A stretch of DNA of 64,000 bases from the NCBI GenBank assembly GCA_944376825.1, contig CALWDY010000012.1, positions 522-64,521 of the forward strand, read 5' to 3'. Of this stretch, positions 12,393 through 31,681 are shown piece after piece (position 1 is the first letter of the stretch; the number at the start of each line of letters is the position of its first letter). The stretch comes from an uncultured Clostridia bacterium. Lineage in GTDB: Bacteria; Bacillota; Clostridia; Christensenellales; UBA1242. A program made the translations under genes and the position numbers. The notes below the pieces were generated by a model, which worked only from the letters and a program-made list of their open reading frames with translations, had not been told where the DNA came from and searched no databases.

Positions 12393-13685
12393 TTATTTTT
12401 TTATAATTTTATTAAAATCTTTAACAATTTTCAACATACGCTCGTCTAAATACTTTAATCCTTGTTTTTCAATTTCTTTTGGAACACCATAGTAAGCGCC
12501 TGCTATTGCTCCCGTTATTGCCCCCATTGTGTCTGTATCTCCACCCCAAGAAATAACTTTTCTTATTGCATCTTCATATGAATTTGATACCAAAAACGCA
12601 AAAATGCTTTGCGGAACAGACTGTTGACACGAGCCCTCAAATTTGTAATTTTCAAACAAATCGTTTTCATCATAGTTCATTGGATAATAATTTTCGTCAA
12701 TATACTTTCCAATTTCTTCTTTACTACATCCGTTTAATGCCATCCACTCAGCCACCGCTGTTGCTTCTGCTCCTTTAATTCCTTCTGGATGATTGTGTGT
12801 TATCTCAGTTACTTTTCTTGATAACTCTTTTACTTCTTCTAAATTTTTTGCAACATAAGAGATTGCACTTATTCTCATTGCACTCCCATTACCAAAAGAA
12901 TTATAAGGTTTAGTGCTACCCGAAATTAACCACTTATAAAACATTCCACCATAACCTGCTGTGTTATAATAATTTTTACCTATTTCATGCATATTCACAA
13001 TTGTTATTTTGTCAAGATTTGTGTAATCTCCCTTGCAGTCAATTAAACTTTGTGCTATTGCACAAGTCATAACAGTGTCATCAGTAAAACGACAATAATT
13101 ATTGAATAATGGAAAATCTTTTAATTTTAAATTCATAAATTCATAAGGAGAGCCAACTATATCTCCAATTATGGTACCCATAAGCACCAATCTATTATCT
13201 TTAAGAACAAATTCTTCTGGTTTGGCTTCGTCAATACTCAATAAATTTGCTTCTGTAACATTTTTTGTTGCTATGTAGTTGTTTATATGTTCCAAATCTA
13301 TTTTTGATGAAAACCCACAATTCTCGTGAAATAATCTTGAACCTAAATTATAAATTCTAATATGGCAACTTATTGAGTTAAAACCTTTTAAATATTTAAA
13401 AATATATTCATAAATTTTTGTTCCTACGCCTTCTCTTTGGTAATTTGTATTTACAGCAATTTGTGCAATATACAAATCACCAATTCGATATAAATCTTTT
13501 TTTAAATAAGCATAACCAATTATATTTTTATTTAATCGTGCAACAACAAGATAATCGTATGGCAAAATGCCCTCATTTTCAAGTGTTCCCCCATTTTTTG
13601 CTAAATTTTCATTATTTATTTTTAATATTTGATTTTTGTCATTTTCATTTAAACTTTTTAATGTTTCAATTATATATTTTTCCAT
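12393..13685 (-). CDS. Fusion protein: N-terminal GNAT acetyltransferase domain plus C-terminal ADP-ribosylglycohydrolase (ARH/DraG-family) domain
   Basis: GNAT part: LYIAQIAVNTNYQREGVGTKIYEYI. ARH part: GDIVGSPYEF, FTDDTVMT, GNGSAMRISA, GGDTDTMGAITGAIAGAYYG. ATG 13685 (MEKYII) preferred over the upstream start at 13748. Confidence 0.7.
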   Translation of the reverse strand: MEKYIIETLKSLNENDKNQILKINNENLAKNGGTLENEGILPYDYLVVARLNKNIIGYAYLKKDLYRIGDLYIAQIAVNTNYQREGVGTKIYEYIFKYLKGFNSISCHIRIYNLGSRLFHENCGFSSKIDLEHINNYIATKNVTEANLLSIDEAKPEEFVLKDNRLVLMGTIIGDIVGSPYEFMNLKLKDFPLFNNYCRFTDDTVMTCAIAQSLIDCKGDYTNLDKITIVNMHEIGKNYYNTAGYGGMFYKWLISGSTKPYNSFGNGSAMRISAISYVAKNLEEVKELSRKVTEITHNHPEGIKGAEATAVAEWMALNGCSKEEIGKYIDENYYPMNYDENDLFENYKFEGSCQQSVPQSIFAFLVSNSYEDAIRKVISWGGDTDTMGAITGAIAGAYYGVPKEIEKQGLKYLDERMLKIVKDFNKIIKK

Positions 13686-14073
13686 ATTTTTCCTTTTATT
13701 TTTTTGTTTGCAAACATACAATGGTAAATTGAAATATATTAGATACAAATGTTAATTTTTTTGTTTATAAATATTTTTATTATTGTTATCTTTTACTATT
13801 AAAAATTTTATTTATGTATAATTCTGTTGCAAATTTATAATAAAATTTTTACTGTAACTAGATCTACATTCAACGATATTATCTACCAATATGATAGTGT
13901 ACCATACTTATACATTTTGAGGATGAACACACTGAGATGTCTTCCATTTTCAAACAGCAAACAGTTGCATTTTTTATAAATTCATTTAATAAATTTTCTT
14001 TTAAATTACAAAAACTTGATTTCCCTAAAACATATTTAATAATGTATTTCATAAACAAAGCCTCTAATATCAT

Positions 14074-17426: not shown

Positions 17427-17822
17427 TTACTTTAAAATATTTTGTAATCTATCAAACTTTTCTTGCCAAAACTCATCTAAAAACCGAGATGAATTTTTGG
17501 AAAATTCATTAGATAGATATTTTAAAACAATTATATTTAATATAAAACTTCTTGAACCATTATGTAAAAAATATTTAAACTCATCCTCCCTTTCTTTAAT
17601 ATTTAAGTCTTTAAGATTTTTGGAAGCAATCACATCATTAACAATAGACAAAAATTTTTCGTCATTAAGAAAGTTTTTAGATATAAAATTATATAGCTTT
17701 TTTTGATTTAAGGTGTTTAAATAATCACCATAAACATCAAATATTTCATGCTGTTTCAGCATACTTTCATCTGTTATATTTTGAAATTGATTTTTATTTT
17801 TTAAACTTGTATCTTTTTTCAT
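17427..17822 (-). CDS. Hypothetical protein
   Basis: 131-aa ORF with no recognisable motifs. The overlapping plus-strand ORF 17317..17706 is judged spurious. Confidence 0.4.
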   Translation of the reverse strand: MKKDTSLKNKNQFQNITDESMLKQHEIFDVYGDYLNTLNQKKLYNFISKNFLNDEKFLSIVNDVIASKNLKDLNIKEREDEFKYFLHNGSRSFILNIIVLKYLSNEFSKNSSRFLDEFWQEKFDRLQNILK

Positions 17823-17953: not shown

Positions 17954-18634
17954 TTATAAGTTTTCTTTTTCTATAAATGGTATTAAAATTCTAGGAGAAG
18001 CGATTCCTGTGCATGAGATTGTGTGCAAATCACCTTTTATGTTTAATCTTTTAACTTGTTCATCTTTAAAATATGTGCAACTGTGAGTTTCCATCCAGCC
18101 GTATTTTTTTGTTTTTACCTCTATATCAAATTTCTTAAAATGATATCCAGCATCTTCTTTTGTTTTATCAACCACTCTGTATTCAATTGAATAATTTTCC
18201 AAAAAAAATGTTGCGTTTTTTAAAAACTCATAAAAATATTTGTCGGCATTTTCTGGCTTACAAAAACAATATTGTTCAAATTTTTTAAACTCTTTTAATC
18301 TTATAAATCCCTCTAAATTTAATTCCTTTCTAAAACATTCGTTAAATGAAAAATAACATTGTTCTTCTTCTACGCTCTTATTCATAAAGTATTCTAAAAA
18401 GCCTTGTTCTGCACTGCCAAAAAGCGCATGCGTCTCATCAATTCCCAAACTTTGGTCTGTTCTTACTGCTTCTTGTTTTTCAACAACCTCCCATTTCCCA
18501 GCACTTGGCAACGATAAGTATTTGTAACCCTTTTTTAAAAGCATATCTTCAAAATCTCTAAATAGTTTTCTTTCTAGTTCGCTTAACTTATTGTCAAGAT
18601 AATACAATCCGTTTTCAACATAATAATTATTCAT
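17954..18634 (-). CDS. Seryl-tRNA-synthetase-like class II catalytic core only (no tRNA-binding coiled-coil arm); possibly an amino acid:carrier/ligase-type paralog
   Basis: SerRS-like motif 2 is ECFRKELNLEGFIRLKEFKKFEQYCFCKPE. FDIEVKTKKYGWMETHSCTYFKDEQVKRLNI corresponds to DLEvW...E.SSCSN..DFQARR. Motif 3 is HTISCTGIASPRILIPFIE. Only 226 aa. 8-nt overlap with the upstream gene. Confidence 0.6.
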   Translation of the reverse strand: MNNYYVENGLYYLDNKLSELERKLFRDFEDMLLKKGYKYLSLPSAGKWEVVEKQEAVRTDQSLGIDETHALFGSAEQGFLEYFMNKSVEEEQCYFSFNECFRKELNLEGFIRLKEFKKFEQYCFCKPENADKYFYEFLKNATFFLENYSIEYRVVDKTKEDAGYHFKKFDIEVKTKKYGWMETHSCTYFKDEQVKRLNIKGDLHTISCTGIASPRILIPFIEKENL

Positions 18635-19617
18635 ATTTTTTACTTTCCTTAACTTTATTTGAAAATTTTATTAAATCATGTATAGTTAAACCATAATTTT
18701 CTGCAATTTTTTCAACTGCTCCAATGATATCTGAAAGTTCAATAAGATACATTAAATGGTTTTGTTGTTGCAATGCATCTTTTGCCTCTTCAACTTCTTC
18801 TTCTACTTTTGAAAATTCACCATAAACACCTTTTTTTATGTTTTTTTCGTGAAAACTAAATTTTTGATTTACATTTATTTCATCATAAGTGTTTTTTGTT
18901 GAAAAATGAATTGTCAAAGGTTTGTTGTTTTTTGTTTCAAAAATAAATCTTTTGTGTAAAAAAGTTTTAAGTTTATTTGTTGTAATTATATTGTTTATAA
19001 CATTGTCTATCTCTGAAATAGCAAGCGCATTATTCTTAATCCAAAGACTTTGTTTTGTTCCATTGTTTGAATTATCCAAAAATTTTAATGCAATTGTTTC
19101 AACATTTTGAATGTTTGAATAATGGTCTATGTAGCGATTAATAAATTTAACATTGTTGTTTAAAAGAACAATATTTACCCTTACTCTCTTTGCATTTAAA
19201 AAACTTGAAAGTTCCAAATAGTTTTGATTTTAACCAAAAAACTTTTTATCCTCTAATGCGTTAGATGATACAACAGTAATTTCCTTTAACCAACCACTAA
19301 ATAGGTTTAATTTTTCTTGTTCACAAAACAAATTACCAGAGGTTTGAATTCGATAATCTTTAAATATTTTTGAATTTTCCACTATTGTTTTTATTTCTTC
19401 AAGTTTTTTTAAATCATACAACGAAGTTTCGCCATTGCCCGACAAAATAAAATGCTCAAAACTTATTTTTTTTGTTTTTGTAATAACTAATTTTGTCTTT
19501 TAAGCTTTTTATTTCTTCTTCAAATGAACTTGTATTTTTGTTATTCATTTTAGCAATACAATAAGGACAATTCTTATTACACTTGTAATCGTTTAGTATA
19601 AAAACAAAATCTTTCAT
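18627..19617 (-). pseudogene. Disrupted radical-SAM enzyme fused to a C-terminal HisE/MazG-like all-alpha NTP pyrophosphohydrolase domain
   Basis: The N-terminus MKDFVFILNDYKCNKNCPYCIAK (Cx3Cx2C) follows an AGGAG Shine-Dalgarno. A +1 frameshift sits in the A8 run (19466..19473), after which the frame continues FEHFILSGNGETSLY. An in-frame TAA lies at 19230..19232. The C-terminus EFSKVEEEVEEAKDAL...LIELSDIIGAVEKIAENYGL carries the EExxE...ExxD pattern. Confidence 0.6.
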
Positions 19618-23278: not shown

Positions 23279-25042
23279 TTATTCTGTTATTTTTATATGA
23301 ACTTCTTTTAATTGTTTTTCTGTTACTTCGCTTGGCGCATTCATTAAAATATCTTGTGCTTTTTTATTCATTGGGAATGCAATTATTTCTCTTATACTTT
23401 CTTCGCCAAGAAGTAGCATAACCATTCTATCCACTCCCGGAGCAATTCCTGCATGTGGTGGTGGTCCATATGAAAATGCGTTGTAAAGTGCTGGAAATTT
23501 TGATTGAACAACATCTTCGCCAAGCCCAACAATTTCAAATGCTTTAAGCATCATTTCCGGATCATGATTTCTTACTGCCCCTGATGATAGTTCAACTCCA
23601 TTGCATACCAAATCGTATTGATATGCTTTTAAACTAAGTGCAAAATTTTTGTCTTGTTTCGCCTTTTCAAGAGCTTGCATTCCACCTTGTGGCATTGAAA
23701 ATGGATTATGACAAAACTCAATTTCACCAGATTCATCACCTATTTCGTACATAGGGAAATCTACAATCCAACAAAATTCATAACATTCTTTATTTATGTG
23801 ATTATTTGTTGCGTACCCTGCTTTTTTAATTATAACACCTGCTGATTTTTGAGCCGTTTTTTTGTCGCCAGCAGTTACAAAGATTATTGTGTTTGGTTTT
23901 AACTGTAATCTTTCTAGCAAATCTGTTTTAATATCTTGCATAAATTTTGCAATTCCGCCAACAAGTTCATTGTTTTCATCAACTTTAAACCAATATACTT
24001 TGTTTTGTGCTTGAACTTCCATATCAGCAACAAGACTGTCAATAAATTTTCTTGACTCTGTAAAATTATCCACAACAACACATTTTACTGTCTTATTTAT
24101 TAAAGCTTCAAAAGTTGACTTTTGCATTAAATCTGTAACATCATTAACTACAAGGTCAATTCTAAGGTCTGGTTTATCCGAGCCATATTTTTCCATTGCT
24201 TCATTATATGGTATCCTTACAAAAGGAGCAGAAGATGCCTTTTTATATTTACCATATTTCTCAAAAACAGGTGGAAGTACTTTTTCTATTACAGTAAATA
24301 CATCTTCTTGATTTGCAAATGCCATTTCCATATCTAATTGATAAAACTCACCTGGTGAACGGTCTTGTCTTGCATCTTCATCTCTAAAACATGGTGCAAT
24401 TTGGAAATACCTATCAAATCCCGATGTCATTAAAAGTTGTTTAAACTGTTGTGGAGCTTGTGGAAGTGCATAAAATTTCCCTGGATAGTTTCTTGAAGGA
24501 ACCAGATAGTCTCTCGCACCTTCTGGTGAAGAACTTGTCAGTATTGGTGTTGTTATTTCCAAAAAGTTTTCTTCTATCATTCTTTGTCTTAATTCTGCAA
24601 CTATTTTACTTCTTAAAACAATTTTACTTTTAACTTCTGGATTTCTTAAATCAAGATATCTATATTTTAATCTAATATTTTCATCTACTTCTGTAGAATG
24701 ATTTACTTCAAATGGAAGTTCGTTATATTTACACTTGCCCAAAACTTCAAGTTTTTCACAAACAATTTCAATGTCTCCTGTTTGCATTTTAGGGTTTTTT
24801 GAAATTCTTTCTCTTACACACCCTTCAACTAATATAGTTGATTCGCAATTGATAGAATTTACTTGTTCAATAATTTCTTGATTGTCTGCAACAATTTGAG
24901 TTTTTCCGTAAAAATCTCTTAAAACCAAAAACATTAAGTTTTTGCTCACGCTTCTAACATTTTCAAGCCAACCAACAAGTTTAACTTTTTGACCTACATT
25001 ACCTAGCCTTAACTCGCCAGCGTTATGTGTTCTATTTTGCAT
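23279..25042 (-). CDS. aspS: Aspartyl-tRNA synthetase
   Basis: 587 aa with an N-terminal OB-fold, class II motifs FQIAPCFRDEDARQDRSPGEFYQLDMEM and GIAPGVDRMVMLL, and the bacterial insertion domain. Confidence 0.95.
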   Translation of the reverse strand: MQNRTHNAGELRLGNVGQKVKLVGWLENVRSVSKNLMFLVLRDFYGKTQIVADNQEIIEQVNSINCESTILVEGCVRERISKNPKMQTGDIEIVCEKLEVLGKCKYNELPFEVNHSTEVDENIRLKYRYLDLRNPEVKSKIVLRSKIVAELRQRMIEENFLEITTPILTSSSPEGARDYLVPSRNYPGKFYALPQAPQQFKQLLMTSGFDRYFQIAPCFRDEDARQDRSPGEFYQLDMEMAFANQEDVFTVIEKVLPPVFEKYGKYKKASSAPFVRIPYNEAMEKYGSDKPDLRIDLVVNDVTDLMQKSTFEALINKTVKCVVVDNFTESRKFIDSLVADMEVQAQNKVYWFKVDENNELVGGIAKFMQDIKTDLLERLQLKPNTIIFVTAGDKKTAQKSAGVIIKKAGYATNNHINKECYEFCWIVDFPMYEIGDESGEIEFCHNPFSMPQGGMQALEKAKQDKNFALSLKAYQYDLVCNGVELSSGAVRNHDPEMMLKAFEIVGLGEDVVQSKFPALYNAFSYGPPPHAGIAPGVDRMVMLLLGEESIREIIAFPMNKKAQDILMNAPSEVTEKQLKEVHIKITE

Positions 25043-27044: not shown

Positions 27045-27200
27045 TTTGCCTCCTTTTTAGATTTGTATGTTTTAATTAAAAAATCCTTTGGCCAAAGTAA
27101 AGCCGAAAGGATTTAATACCAATCTAAACTTCGCCTCGGCAAGCACAATAAATTGTTTACGAAAAATCACTTGCTGTCTTTGGAAAAGGACAATATTTAA
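27045..27200 (-). promoter_or_regulatory. Probable L10 (rplJ) autoregulatory leader RNA
   Basis: GC-enriched, stem-rich 5' region. Examples are AAATCCTTTCGGC...GCCAAAGGATTT and CAGCAAGTG...CTTGCCGAGGCGAAG. It sits directly upstream of rplJ, as in Firmicutes L10 leaders. The family assignment is not verifiable by eye. Confidence 0.4.
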
Positions 27201-27249
27201 TTAACGGACTGATAATATCACAAATTTTTTAACATGTCAACGCTTTTGT

Positions 27250-30292: not shown

Positions 30293-31681
30293 ATGGACAA
30301 CAATGTAACAATGGACAAAATTGTAAGTTTGTGTAAAAATCGTGGAATAATTTTTCAAGGCAGTGAAATTTATGGTGGAATGGGAAACACTTGGGACTAT
30401 GGTCCTGTTGGTGTTGAAATAAAAAACAATATTAAACGTGCTTGGTGGAAAAAATTTGTTCAAGAAAGCGAAAACTCTTTTGGTGTTGATGCTGCTATTT
30501 TAATGAATTCAAAAGTTTGGGATGCAAGCGGACACACAACATCTTTTAGCGATCCAAAAATGGATTGCAAGGAATGCAAAACTCGTCATCGTGCTGATAA
30601 CTTAATTGAAAATTATTGCTGTAAACACAAAATTGATGGCGTTGTACCTGACAATATGACCAACGAAGAAATGGAGAATTTTATTGAAGAGCACAAAATT
30701 GCCTGCCCTGTTTGTGGAAAACATAACTTTACACCAATAAGACAATTTAAACTTATGTTTGAAACAAGTCGTGGAGTAACCGAAGACAACACCGACAAAA
30801 TTTATTTAAGACCAGAAACAGCACAAGGTGAATTTGTAAACTTTTTGAATGTTCAAAGAAGTATGCGTGCAAAAGTACCTTTTGGAATTGCGCAAATTGG
30901 CAAAGCATTTAGAAACGAAATTACTCCCGGGAACTTTATTTTTAGAACAATAGAATTTGAACAAATGGAACATCAACTATTTTGCAAAGAATGTGATGAT
31001 GAAAAATTTTATAACTTATACAAACAAAAAGCATGGAACTTTTTGGTAAGTCTTGGAATTGACGAAACAAAATTAAGATTTAAAGACCATGACAAACTTG
31101 CACACTACGCAAAAAATGCTTGTGATATTCAATACAACTTCCCTATCGGTTGGAGTGAACTTAATGGAATACACAACAGAACAAACTATGATCTTTCTCG
31201 TCATCAAGAATATTCGGGTAAAAACATGATGTATTTGGACCCAATAACAAATGAAAAATATATTCCATATGTTGTTGAATATTCTATCGGTGCTGACAGA
31301 CTTATGCTTACAGTACTATGTGATGCATATCGTGAAGAAAAACTTGAAGACGGAGAAACAAGAGTTGTGTTAAAACTTGCTCCATTTATTGCACCATATA
31401 AGGCATGTGTTTTGCCACTTATGAAGAAAAATCACAGTCAAAAAGCACAAGAATTACACACTATGCTTGCAAAATACTTTATGTGCGATTATGACGAAAG
31501 TGGAAGCATTGGAAAAAGATACCGTAGACAAGACGAAATTGGCACTCCATACTGTATTACTGTTGACGATGAAACACTTAATAATGGTACTGTTACAATT
31601 AGAGATAGAGATACAATGAAGCAAGACATTGTTAAAATTGAAGATGTAAAAAATTATATACAATCAAGATGTGAATATTAA
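30293..31681 (+). CDS. glyQS: Glycyl-tRNA synthetase (single-chain alpha2 type)
   Basis: IVSLCKNRGIIFQGSEIYGGMGNTWDYGPVG, YLRPETAQG and FRNEITPGNFIFRTIEFEQME (class II motif 2). C-terminal anticodon-binding domain. Confidence 0.95.
   Translation: MDNNVTMDKIVSLCKNRGIIFQGSEIYGGMGNTWDYGPVGVEIKNNIKRAWWKKFVQESENSFGVDAAILMNSKVWDASGHTTSFSDPKMDCKECKTRHRADNLIENYCCKHKIDGVVPDNMTNEEMENFIEEHKIACPVCGKHNFTPIRQFKLMFETSRGVTEDNTDKIYLRPETAQGEFVNFLNVQRSMRAKVPFGIAQIGKAFRNEITPGNFIFRTIEFEQMEHQLFCKECDDEKFYNLYKQKAWNFLVSLGIDETKLRFKDHDKLAHYAKNACDIQYNFPIGWSELNGIHNRTNYDLSRHQEYSGKNMMYLDPITNEKYIPYVVEYSIGADRLMLTVLCDAYREEKLEDGETRVVLKLAPFIAPYKACVLPLMKKNHSQKAQELHTMLAKYFMCDYDESGSIGKRYRRQDEIGTPYCITVDDETLNNGTVTIRDRDTMKQDIVKIEDVKNYIQSRCEY

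Follow-up and report, generated by a model that had tools for sequence, protein, structure and literature searches.

The region at positions 17954–19617 (minus strand) of the window, a 64,000-nt stretch of an uncultured Clostridia bacterium (contig CALWDY010000012.1), is best explained as a degenerating copy of a module that comprises two enzymes and originates from phages. The module couples a MazG-like domain (MazGl) to a stand-alone catalytic core of the seryl-tRNA synthetase type (SerRS; the core is termed SerRSl). In the window, MazGl forms the C-terminal domain of a disrupted gene that begins with a radical S-adenosylmethionine (rSAM) domain, whereas SerRSl is encoded by an intact gene. 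Comparison of loci revealed that the conserved unit is MazGl plus the SerRS-type core and not the rSAM domain, which is an accessory that has been gained, replaced or lost: it occurs fused in either order or as a separate protein, is swapped for a CYTH domain, or is absent. We tentatively propose that SerRSl and MazGl together ligate serine to a nucleotide, a reading to which we assign a probability of about 40%.

The SerRSl gene (17954–18634, minus strand) encodes a 226-aa class II catalytic core devoid of a tRNA-binding arm, and family and fold matches agree with the initial annotation, which had recognized its three class II motifs. The open reading frame (ORF) matches the Pfam family tRNA-synt_2b (E 8e-15) and positions 165–399 of the 418 positions of the NCBIfam serS model TIGR00414 (E 1.6e-21), both far beyond chance, and scores 76.8 bits on TIGR00414 without reaching its cutoff of 301.65. 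Together with other stand-alone proteins of 220–240 aa, it makes up a family that has a conserved start (91 clusters at 90% identity); in 1.84 billion representatives (50% identity), about 45 clusters were retrieved with E ≤ 1e-30, followed by canonical SerRS of ~420 aa. Since the family is stand-alone and its start conserved, we ruled out that the ORF is a fragment of serS, as the initial annotation had also considered improbable. No canonical serS turned up in the window, the remaining ORFs of which were not individually annotated.

The SerRSl family profile aligns to residues 159–396 of Thermus thermophilus SerRS (E 4e-25), and the T. thermophilus numbering used here derives from that alignment. 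Equivalents of R256, E258, R271, F275, E279, E345, S348, T380 and R386 are all kept, with those of E345 and S348 falling inside an identical ETHSC string; we take their roles in binding ATP and serine to be those seen in SerRS–adenylate structures. The class II motifs are represented by P43 (motif 1), FR102xE104 (motif 2) and R215 (motif 3). The AlphaFold2 (AF2) model of SerRSl (pLDDT 94) was compared with the PDB using Foldseek: the best 50 matches are all SerRS catalytic domains (TM 0.83–0.89, r.m.s.d. mostly 2–3 Å) of the canonical, non-methanogen type, from bacterial, archaeal, eukaryotic and mitochondrial enzymes, and no amino acid:[carrier protein] ligase is among these 50. Missing from SerRSl are the coiled-coil arm at the N-terminus, the C-terminal tail and some eight residues of the motif 2 loop; the end of the protein directly follows motif 3. 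It begins at the equivalent of SerRS residue ~159, and the sequence upstream encodes MazGl and no arm. The initial annotation had left open whether a zinc site is kept; the profile alignment to SerRS shows no Cys/Glu/Cys site, and the positions presumably equivalent to the zinc ligands (E76, E120 and T209) are as in zinc-free bacterial SerRS. We conclude that SerRSl is, as predicted from these comparisons, a bacterial-type serine-activating core that has lost recognition of tRNA(Ser), and that it would make seryl-adenylate (Ser-AMP) from L-serine and ATP.

The C-terminal domain of the upstream gene (18630–18851, minus strand; 74 aa) appears to be an all-alpha NTP pyrophosphohydrolase domain of the MazG/HisE superfamily, an earlier assignment that is supported by both its motif and profile matches. 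Five acidic residues (E22, E23, E26, E42 and D45) do not vary among the 15 members compared and give EExxE x15 ExxD, which fits the metal-binding motif of the superfamily, EExxE(x12–28)ExxD; they align with the same residues of the MazG-like protein 1VMG and the phosphoribosyl-ATP pyrophosphohydrolase (PRA-PH) 2A7W, which the MazGl profile matches in the PDB with E 0.0066 and 0.18, respectively. Some members carry a precomputed match to PF01503, the PHROGs family phrog_6408 matches MazGl of an orthologue (E about 1-2e-22), and JGI names for members are 'phosphoribosyl-ATP pyrophosphohydrolase' or 'MazG superfamily'. MazGl comprises three predicted helices and has its own invariant N-terminal motif, H..I.KG.YGE.SK, in which S18 and K19 lie at a helix N-cap. 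The domain would be an active, Mg-dependent NTP alpha-beta pyrophosphohydrolase that converts NTP to NMP and pyrophosphate (PPi). Searches of family models found no PP-binding or carrier-protein signature in MazGl. A carrier-protein identity was ruled out, as the serine of the ELSD string is variable (Ala in 3 of the 15 members) and the MazG metal-binding motif is invariant.

In every locus found with a SerRS-type core, MazGl is encoded directly upstream of SerRSl or within ~1.3 kb of it, and gene overlaps of a few to ~25 nt recur. The arrangement of the window, an rSAM::MazGl fusion followed by the core, occurs in L002, L003 and L014–L016 with the same 8-nt overlap and in L017 with an 11-nt overlap. 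The intact orthologous pairs in these loci are always adjacent, with proteins of 331 and ~229 aa in related uncultured Bacilli metagenome-assembled genomes (MAGs), and lie in differing housekeeping neighborhoods (L002, L014–L017). Elsewhere, MazGl and the core are accompanied by a separate 260-aa rSAM protein (L006/L007 and the viral contigs L022, L023 and L030), or MazGl is fused to a CYTH domain (P0162, L008) or to an unnamed N-terminal domain (P0191, L021). MazGl alone precedes the core in Bacillus sp. DJP31, a Chitinophagales MAG, several IMG/VR contigs, huge-phage-like contigs of 170–470 kb, Bacillus phage G (gp286/gp287) and phage BpSp (gp012/gp011). Two proteins have the reverse order MazGl-linker-rSAM (P0139 and P0143), and one is a triple rSAM–MazGl–SerRSl fusion (P0134). 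In two loci, Bacillus sp. DJP31 and L092, the next gene downstream encodes a dGTPase (PADLOC 6.6e-44) or another HD protein. The pairing of an rSAM–MazG fusion with a SerRS core described in the initial annotation is thereby supported, with the refinements that its conserved part is MazGl/SerRS, that the rSAM domain is interchangeable and that the module belongs mainly to large phages.

A scan of the GTDB species representatives returned 7 loci, including a full-length SerRS-like relative (L020) and two loci already known, so the SerRS-type clade is rare in cellular genomes. A search of IMG/VR with the MazGl profile yielded 57 viral loci (L034–L090), 48 of which have an adjacent class II core, in either order. 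This core is shorter (173–203 aa) and keeps GS(A/G)EQ, FRxE, the E279-equivalent Glu and motif 3 with the T380-equivalent Thr. It is present in 276 phage records, from phages of Escherichia (112), Acinetobacter (61) and other hosts, such as the Caulobacter giants and Microcystis phage Ma-LMM01; its carriers include E. coli Vequintavirinae, T4-like Acinetobacter phages and Bacillus phage G. In phages UPEC06 and AbTZA1, a protein with an N-terminal MazGl domain is encoded directly upstream of the shorter core, which databases label 'histidyl/seryl tRNA synthetase' or 'hypothetical'. Locus coordinates recorded for this pairing include L094, 4445–5570, and L095, 4357–5546. The MazGl partner family amounts to at least 1092 clusters at 90% identity. 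The window cassette is one clade, with an rSAM domain added, of this widespread large-phage pair, phrog_6408 plus phrog_4806. The phage neighborhoods of the pair are rich in ribonucleotide reductase (RNR), ThyX, dUTPase and thymidylate kinase genes.

Several further features of the phage loci were noted. In L087/L088 (4992–5546), the first two MazGl helices are fused to an RF-1/GGQ peptidyl-tRNA-hydrolase domain (PF00472, 2.8e-14), and a search up to three genes away revealed no class II core. Two families recur upstream of the pair in 6–8 viral loci, one of ~238 aa (phrog_3668, 'hydrolase'; L048, 2595–3311) and one of ~200 aa with two HxT/S motifs (L048, 3852–4466); neither has a Pfam match or an informative name in PHROGs, and the HxT/S motifs suggest that the latter is a 2H phosphoesterase. 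The phage G pair immediately follows KptA and a cluster of genes for NAD synthesis.

The rSAM domain carries the cysteines C13, C17 and C20 and the SGNGE motif. It scores 23.9 bits on PF04055 in the repaired window copy (described below) and 29.7 bits in the intact orthologue P0092, with a cutoff of 29.5. The AF2 model of P0092 (pLDDT 88) shows alternating beta–alpha units that build a partial TIM barrel, with three helices behind it. With this model, Foldseek retrieved exclusively rSAM enzymes at E ≤ 0.001, MoaA being nearest (E 3e-7); numerous viperins and viperin-like enzymes come next, at E 4e-6 or weaker. In sequence the family is remote, its best profile match in the PDB being a viperin-like enzyme (E 0.032). 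The predicted fold is thus closest to MoaA and viperin, which act on GTP and CTP, respectively. The PADLOC models of prokaryotic viperins (pVip) match neither the repaired window protein nor P0092, and the N-terminal half of P0139 matches them weakly (1.5e-5). More broadly, PADLOC gave no meaningful defense-system match for the cassette proteins. Among the rSAM relatives, P0173–P0188 are fusions to cytidylate kinase of ~490 aa. In the loci examined for one such fusion (P0180; L009, 7001–9766, also L010 and L011), the genes that follow encode an Apyc1-like protein of the MBL fold and a 191-aa protein with weak CYTH similarity; these loci appear to represent a separate, possibly viperin-like, nucleotide system. 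In L025 (7202–7980), a separate rSAM gene lying between the MazGl and SerRS-like genes is split into two ORFs (109 and 134 aa), making this the second instance of an rSAM gene that is disrupted next to an intact MazGl/SerRSl pair.

In the window, the rSAM::MazGl pseudogene spans 18627–19617 (minus strand) in three fragments. Fragment 1 (19456–19617, 53 aa) is the rSAM N-terminus with the CxxxCxxC motif CNKNCPYC (PF04055, E 0.0084). It contains a +1-nt frameshift within an A8 homopolymer (19466–19473, minus strand; T8 on the plus strand), and shortening the run to A7 restores the frame. Fragment 2 (19230–19445, minus strand, 71 aa) contains the SAM-binding SGNGE motif (SGNGETSLY) and the conserved strand YRIQTSGNLF. 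It is closed by an in-frame TAA (19230–19232, minus strand) that homologue alignment places at Y131 of P0092, a Tyr invariant across 47 homologues, consistent with a change of TAY to TAA. Fragment 3 (18627–19217, minus strand, 196 aa) comprises the C-terminal half of the rSAM partial barrel (18852–19217; rSAM query match E 4e-36) and then the MazG-like domain, with a tail, ...SKVEEEVEEAKDA...IELSDIIGA..., that fits EExxE(x15)ExxD. Deleting one A and translating across the TAA yields a protein of 329 aa, in line with the ~330 aa expected from two repairs in the initial annotation. It is colinear with the 331-aa orthologues without a single internal alignment gap, is 55–66% identical to P0092–P0136, and has 41 of 42 columns of ≥90% conservation intact. 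The stop of this gene and the start of the SerRSl gene overlap by the 8 nt ATGAATAA (18627–18634, minus strand), at the place noted initially, and the overlap constitutes translational coupling.

The initial annotation had regarded the whole cassette as apparently inactivated. The upstream gene is indeed broken twice; the SerRSl gene, on the other hand, is intact and keeps every family-invariant residue, so only the rSAM::MazGl gene is disrupted. Both lesions lie in the rSAM half, and translation of the fused MazGl domain is severed as well: after the TAA, the sole in-frame start is the TTG at 19217, in front of which the sequence shows no evident ribosome-binding site. The lesions abolish the rSAM step and most likely the MazGl step too, so that the window copy is probably non-functional, and we regard the inactivation as recent because nearly all conserved columns persist. 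An alternative genetic code (TGA = Trp, as in Mollicutes) was ruled out as the origin of the breaks, since one is a frameshift and the other a TAA. The window is bacterial chromosomal DNA of 28.8% G+C. Its long ORFs in the standard bacterial code (up to 1199 aa), the use of TAA as the main stop of 40 long ORFs (TAA 30, TAG 7, TGA 3) and the presence of a tRNA-Trp with anticodon CCA also contradict such a code. As the genome uses code 11, the stops in the window are real stops. Scans for promoters and terminators gave nothing informative. The 131-aa ORF directly 3′ of the SerRSl gene (17427–17822, minus strand) was rejected as a third cassette gene, as it does not recur beside the cassette elsewhere; it has no match in Pfam, NCBIfam, PADLOC or PHROGs and is unlike the 132-aa neighbor in L002.

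SerRSl shares with canonical bacterial SerRS (TIGR00414) the class II fold (TM 0.88, r.m.s.d. about 2 Å), motifs 1–3 and the serine- and ATP-binding residues, but it has neither the ~100-residue arm at the N-terminus nor the C-terminal tail, its motif 2 loop is shortened and it is always coupled to a MazG-like gene. The amino acid:[carrier protein] ligases of Bradyrhizobium and Agrobacterium are likewise stand-alone SerRS-like cores without a tRNA-binding domain, encoded next to an ~80-aa partner. These ligases are of the methanogen type, zinc-dependent and load a phosphopantetheinyl carrier, whereas SerRSl is of the bacterial type without zinc ligands and its partner bears the MazG metal motif and no carrier-protein serine. 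MazGl resembles HisE (PRA-PH) and MazG in its small helical domain, its EExxE...ExxD motif and its profile matches to 1VMG and 2A7W, but it is shorter, has an N-terminal motif of its own and stays below the Pfam gathering score. Viperin and MoaA, the nearest structural neighbors of the rSAM domain, both act on NTPs, and the cytidylate-kinase fusions of the rSAM relatives recall the kinase association of viperin; by contrast, the pVip models miss P0092, and the rSAM domain lacks a second, MoaA-type cluster.

The closest analogies, which we do not take for memberships, are provided by two other systems. In GluQRS (YadB) and EpmA (PoxA), a truncated synthetase keeps its adenylate chemistry and serves an acceptor other than the tRNA 3′ end, which for GluQRS is a hydroxyl of a modified nucleoside; these enzymes descend from other lineages (class I GluRS and LysRS, respectively), have macromolecular acceptors and lack a MazG partner. 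In the phage Z-genome cluster MazZ–PurZ–DatZ (DatZ being an HD protein), a MazG-type NTPase supplies NMP to an ATP-dependent amino-acid ligase, and this trio may be likened to MazGl, SerRSl and the dGTPase/HD genes of L004 and L092. The Z-genome ligase is, however, a homologue of adenylosuccinate synthetase and not an aminoacyl-tRNA synthetase (aaRS) core, and the homology established between the two systems does not go beyond the MazG superfamily.

We infer, in agreement with the initial annotation, a pathway of nucleotide/aminoacyl type. MazGl would convert an NTP to NMP, and an rSAM, CYTH or HD accessory, where present, would alter or select the NTP beforehand. SerRSl, without the arm that recognizes tRNA(Ser), would then move serine from Ser-AMP onto the NMP made by MazGl; the ribose 2′/3′-OH would be the likeliest site of serylation, because a 5′-NMP mimics A76 of tRNA. 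The resulting seryl-nucleotide would serve in a phage–host conflict over nucleotides. In support of this proposal, MazGl and SerRSl are coupled and at times fused, both sets of catalytic residues are conserved, and the elements of tRNA recognition are lost. The superfamilies or nearest relatives of the accessories (rSAM, CYTH, HD/dGTPase and the cytidylate kinase of the relatives) act on NTPs or polyphosphates, and a function in the nucleotide pool would accord with the RNR, ThyX, dUTPase and thymidylate kinase genes of the phage neighborhoods. A bolder version, which we consider unlikely, is that the pair makes free 2′/3′-O-seryl-NMPs that would mimic aminoacylated A76 in the manner of puromycin, with the rSAM domain, where present, adding a viperin-type ribose modification. 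Such compounds, effectors or antimetabolites derived from nucleotides, would constitute a novel class, employed by large phages and by some bacteria to manipulate translation or polymerases in the course of infection.

A number of observations weigh against the seryl-nucleotide proposal. The putative MazG-like assignment leans on sub-threshold Pfam scores (PF01503, E 0.009–0.13 in several independent members, 13–17 bits against a cutoff of 21.3), and the substrate of the rSAM domain is deduced from fold neighbors at a TM of only about 0.5. The two lesions are present in two deposits and in no independent strain: L001, the sole other contig with the window copy, is 100% identical over 12.7 kb, and its coverage, ~4x according to its record name, leaves room for an assembly error. 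If both lesions were such errors, the rSAM::MazGl gene would be intact and functional in the window, as its low-coverage counterpart, the homopolymer setting of one lesion and the otherwise preserved conserved columns would allow; we hold this to be improbable, since two independent lesions fall inside 240 nt of one gene, the second is a substitution rather than a homopolymer error, and the two deposited contigs agree in full. A serious alternative, if a rather unlikely one, concerns the tRNA 3′ end. SerRSl may still act on tRNA: the armless core would bind or charge the CCA ends of phage tRNAs or of tRNAs damaged by toxins, with MazGl clearing a nucleotide or pyrophosphate block, to the benefit of translation or to counter defenses that target tRNA. 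SerRSl fully conserves the active site with which SerRS normally accepts A76, a CCA-adding enzyme and a nucleotidyltransferase are encoded 1–4 kb upstream of the pair in UPEC06, the second gene upstream in L019 is for a T4 Rnl1-type RNA ligase, and KptA in the phage G neighborhood and the RF-1/GGQ fusion also point to tRNA or RNA. Genes for tRNAs lie within 5–8 kb in 13 of 60 loci, a raw count that has no baseline for comparison, and the GGQ fusion is limited to two contigs of identical sequence. The arm that recognizes tRNA(Ser) is absent from SerRSl and the motif 2 loop, which contacts the acceptor stem, is shortened; in E. coli SerRS, deletion of the arm abolishes tRNA charging and leaves serine activation in place. 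To our knowledge, MazG-family enzymes act on free nucleotides only, and the links to rSAM, CYTH, dGTPase and cytidylate kinase suit free NTPs better than tRNA ends.

Other explanations dispense with a seryl-nucleotide altogether. SerRSl could be a serine- and ATP-sensing subunit that controls the NTPase activity of MazGl (and rSAM), yielding a metabolite-gated hydrolase and no ligation product. HisZ, a paralogue of the HisRS core that regulates HisG, offers a precedent, and the tight coupling and occasional fusion of the two genes and the resemblance of MazGl to HisE speak for such an arrangement; HisZ itself, however, has lost the catalytic residues for adenylate formation, whereas in SerRSl these residues, and not just those for binding, are invariant across the family, and we deem a regulatory role quite improbable. 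We give little credence to a role in alarmone synthesis, in which Ser-AMP would react with ATP or another NTP to give dinucleoside tetraphosphates (Ap4N), and MazGl would hydrolyze the products or a competing alarmone. Class II synthetases do form diadenosine tetraphosphate (Ap4A) from aminoacyl-adenylates, SerRSl has no tRNA arm, MazG-type enzymes have been reported to act on unusual nucleotides, and the CYTH, HD and rSAM accessories would all act on NTPs or polyphosphates; yet a side reaction would not need the strict conservation of the serine-specific residues equivalent to E279 and T380, and no known Ap4A-related gene recurs near the pair in the loci examined. It is very improbable that SerRSl serylates MazGl itself, in the way that EpmA modifies EF-P or the amino acid:[carrier protein] ligases load their carriers. 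An ~80-aa helical partner does adjoin the ligase gene, as in the loci of those ligases, and S18 and K19 of MazGl are invariant, but the further invariant residues form the MazG metal-binding motif EExxE...ExxD, the ELSD serine is not invariant, carrier-protein signatures were not found, and SerRSl is not the zinc-dependent core of methanogen type found in those ligases.

The surroundings of the cassette in the window contain other genes of translation. A 462-aa class II synthetase (30293–31681, plus strand), which weakly matches the SerRS-like query, is GlyRS (PDB 8SLD, 1.4e-125); the ORF at 23279–25042 has an AspRS-type domain match (obtained through L001), and a tRNA-His gene is also nearby. 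The cassette is therefore surrounded by housekeeping genes for translation, a setting it shares with its L002 counterpart (GluRS, HisRS). An Rfam ribosomal protein L10 leader (27069–27201, minus strand; 61 bits) lies 5′ of a presumed rplJ operon and is ordinary. ADP-ribosylglycohydrolase genes occur within 5–8 kb of the cassette in three unrelated loci (window, 12393–13748, minus strand; L006, 303–1082; L019, 15597–16496), the window copy being a GNAT + ADP_ribosyl_GH fusion.

Full-text literature searches returned no account of a MazG-like/SerRS-core pair, in keeping with the initial annotation, which had not recognized the pairing. A targeted reading of a comparative-genomics study of jumbo phages (PMC7824862) found MazG-like and CYTH triphosphatases mentioned in general terms only and no description of the pair. 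The pair thus appears to be undescribed, and it is kin to known stand-alone aaRS-core ligases and to phage MazG-linked nucleotide modules. It is not confined to one MAG, as the numbers of MazGl clusters and of phage records with the shorter core attest. Since cultured E. coli phages carry it, genetic and biochemical work can address its function directly. For annotation, our findings imply that genes for these armless SerRS cores are not to be counted among the translational aaRS genes of huge phages. A serine-adenylate core without tRNA recognition, tied to an NTP pyrophosphatase, points to an undescribed amino-acid/nucleotide chemistry in the conflict between phages and their hosts.

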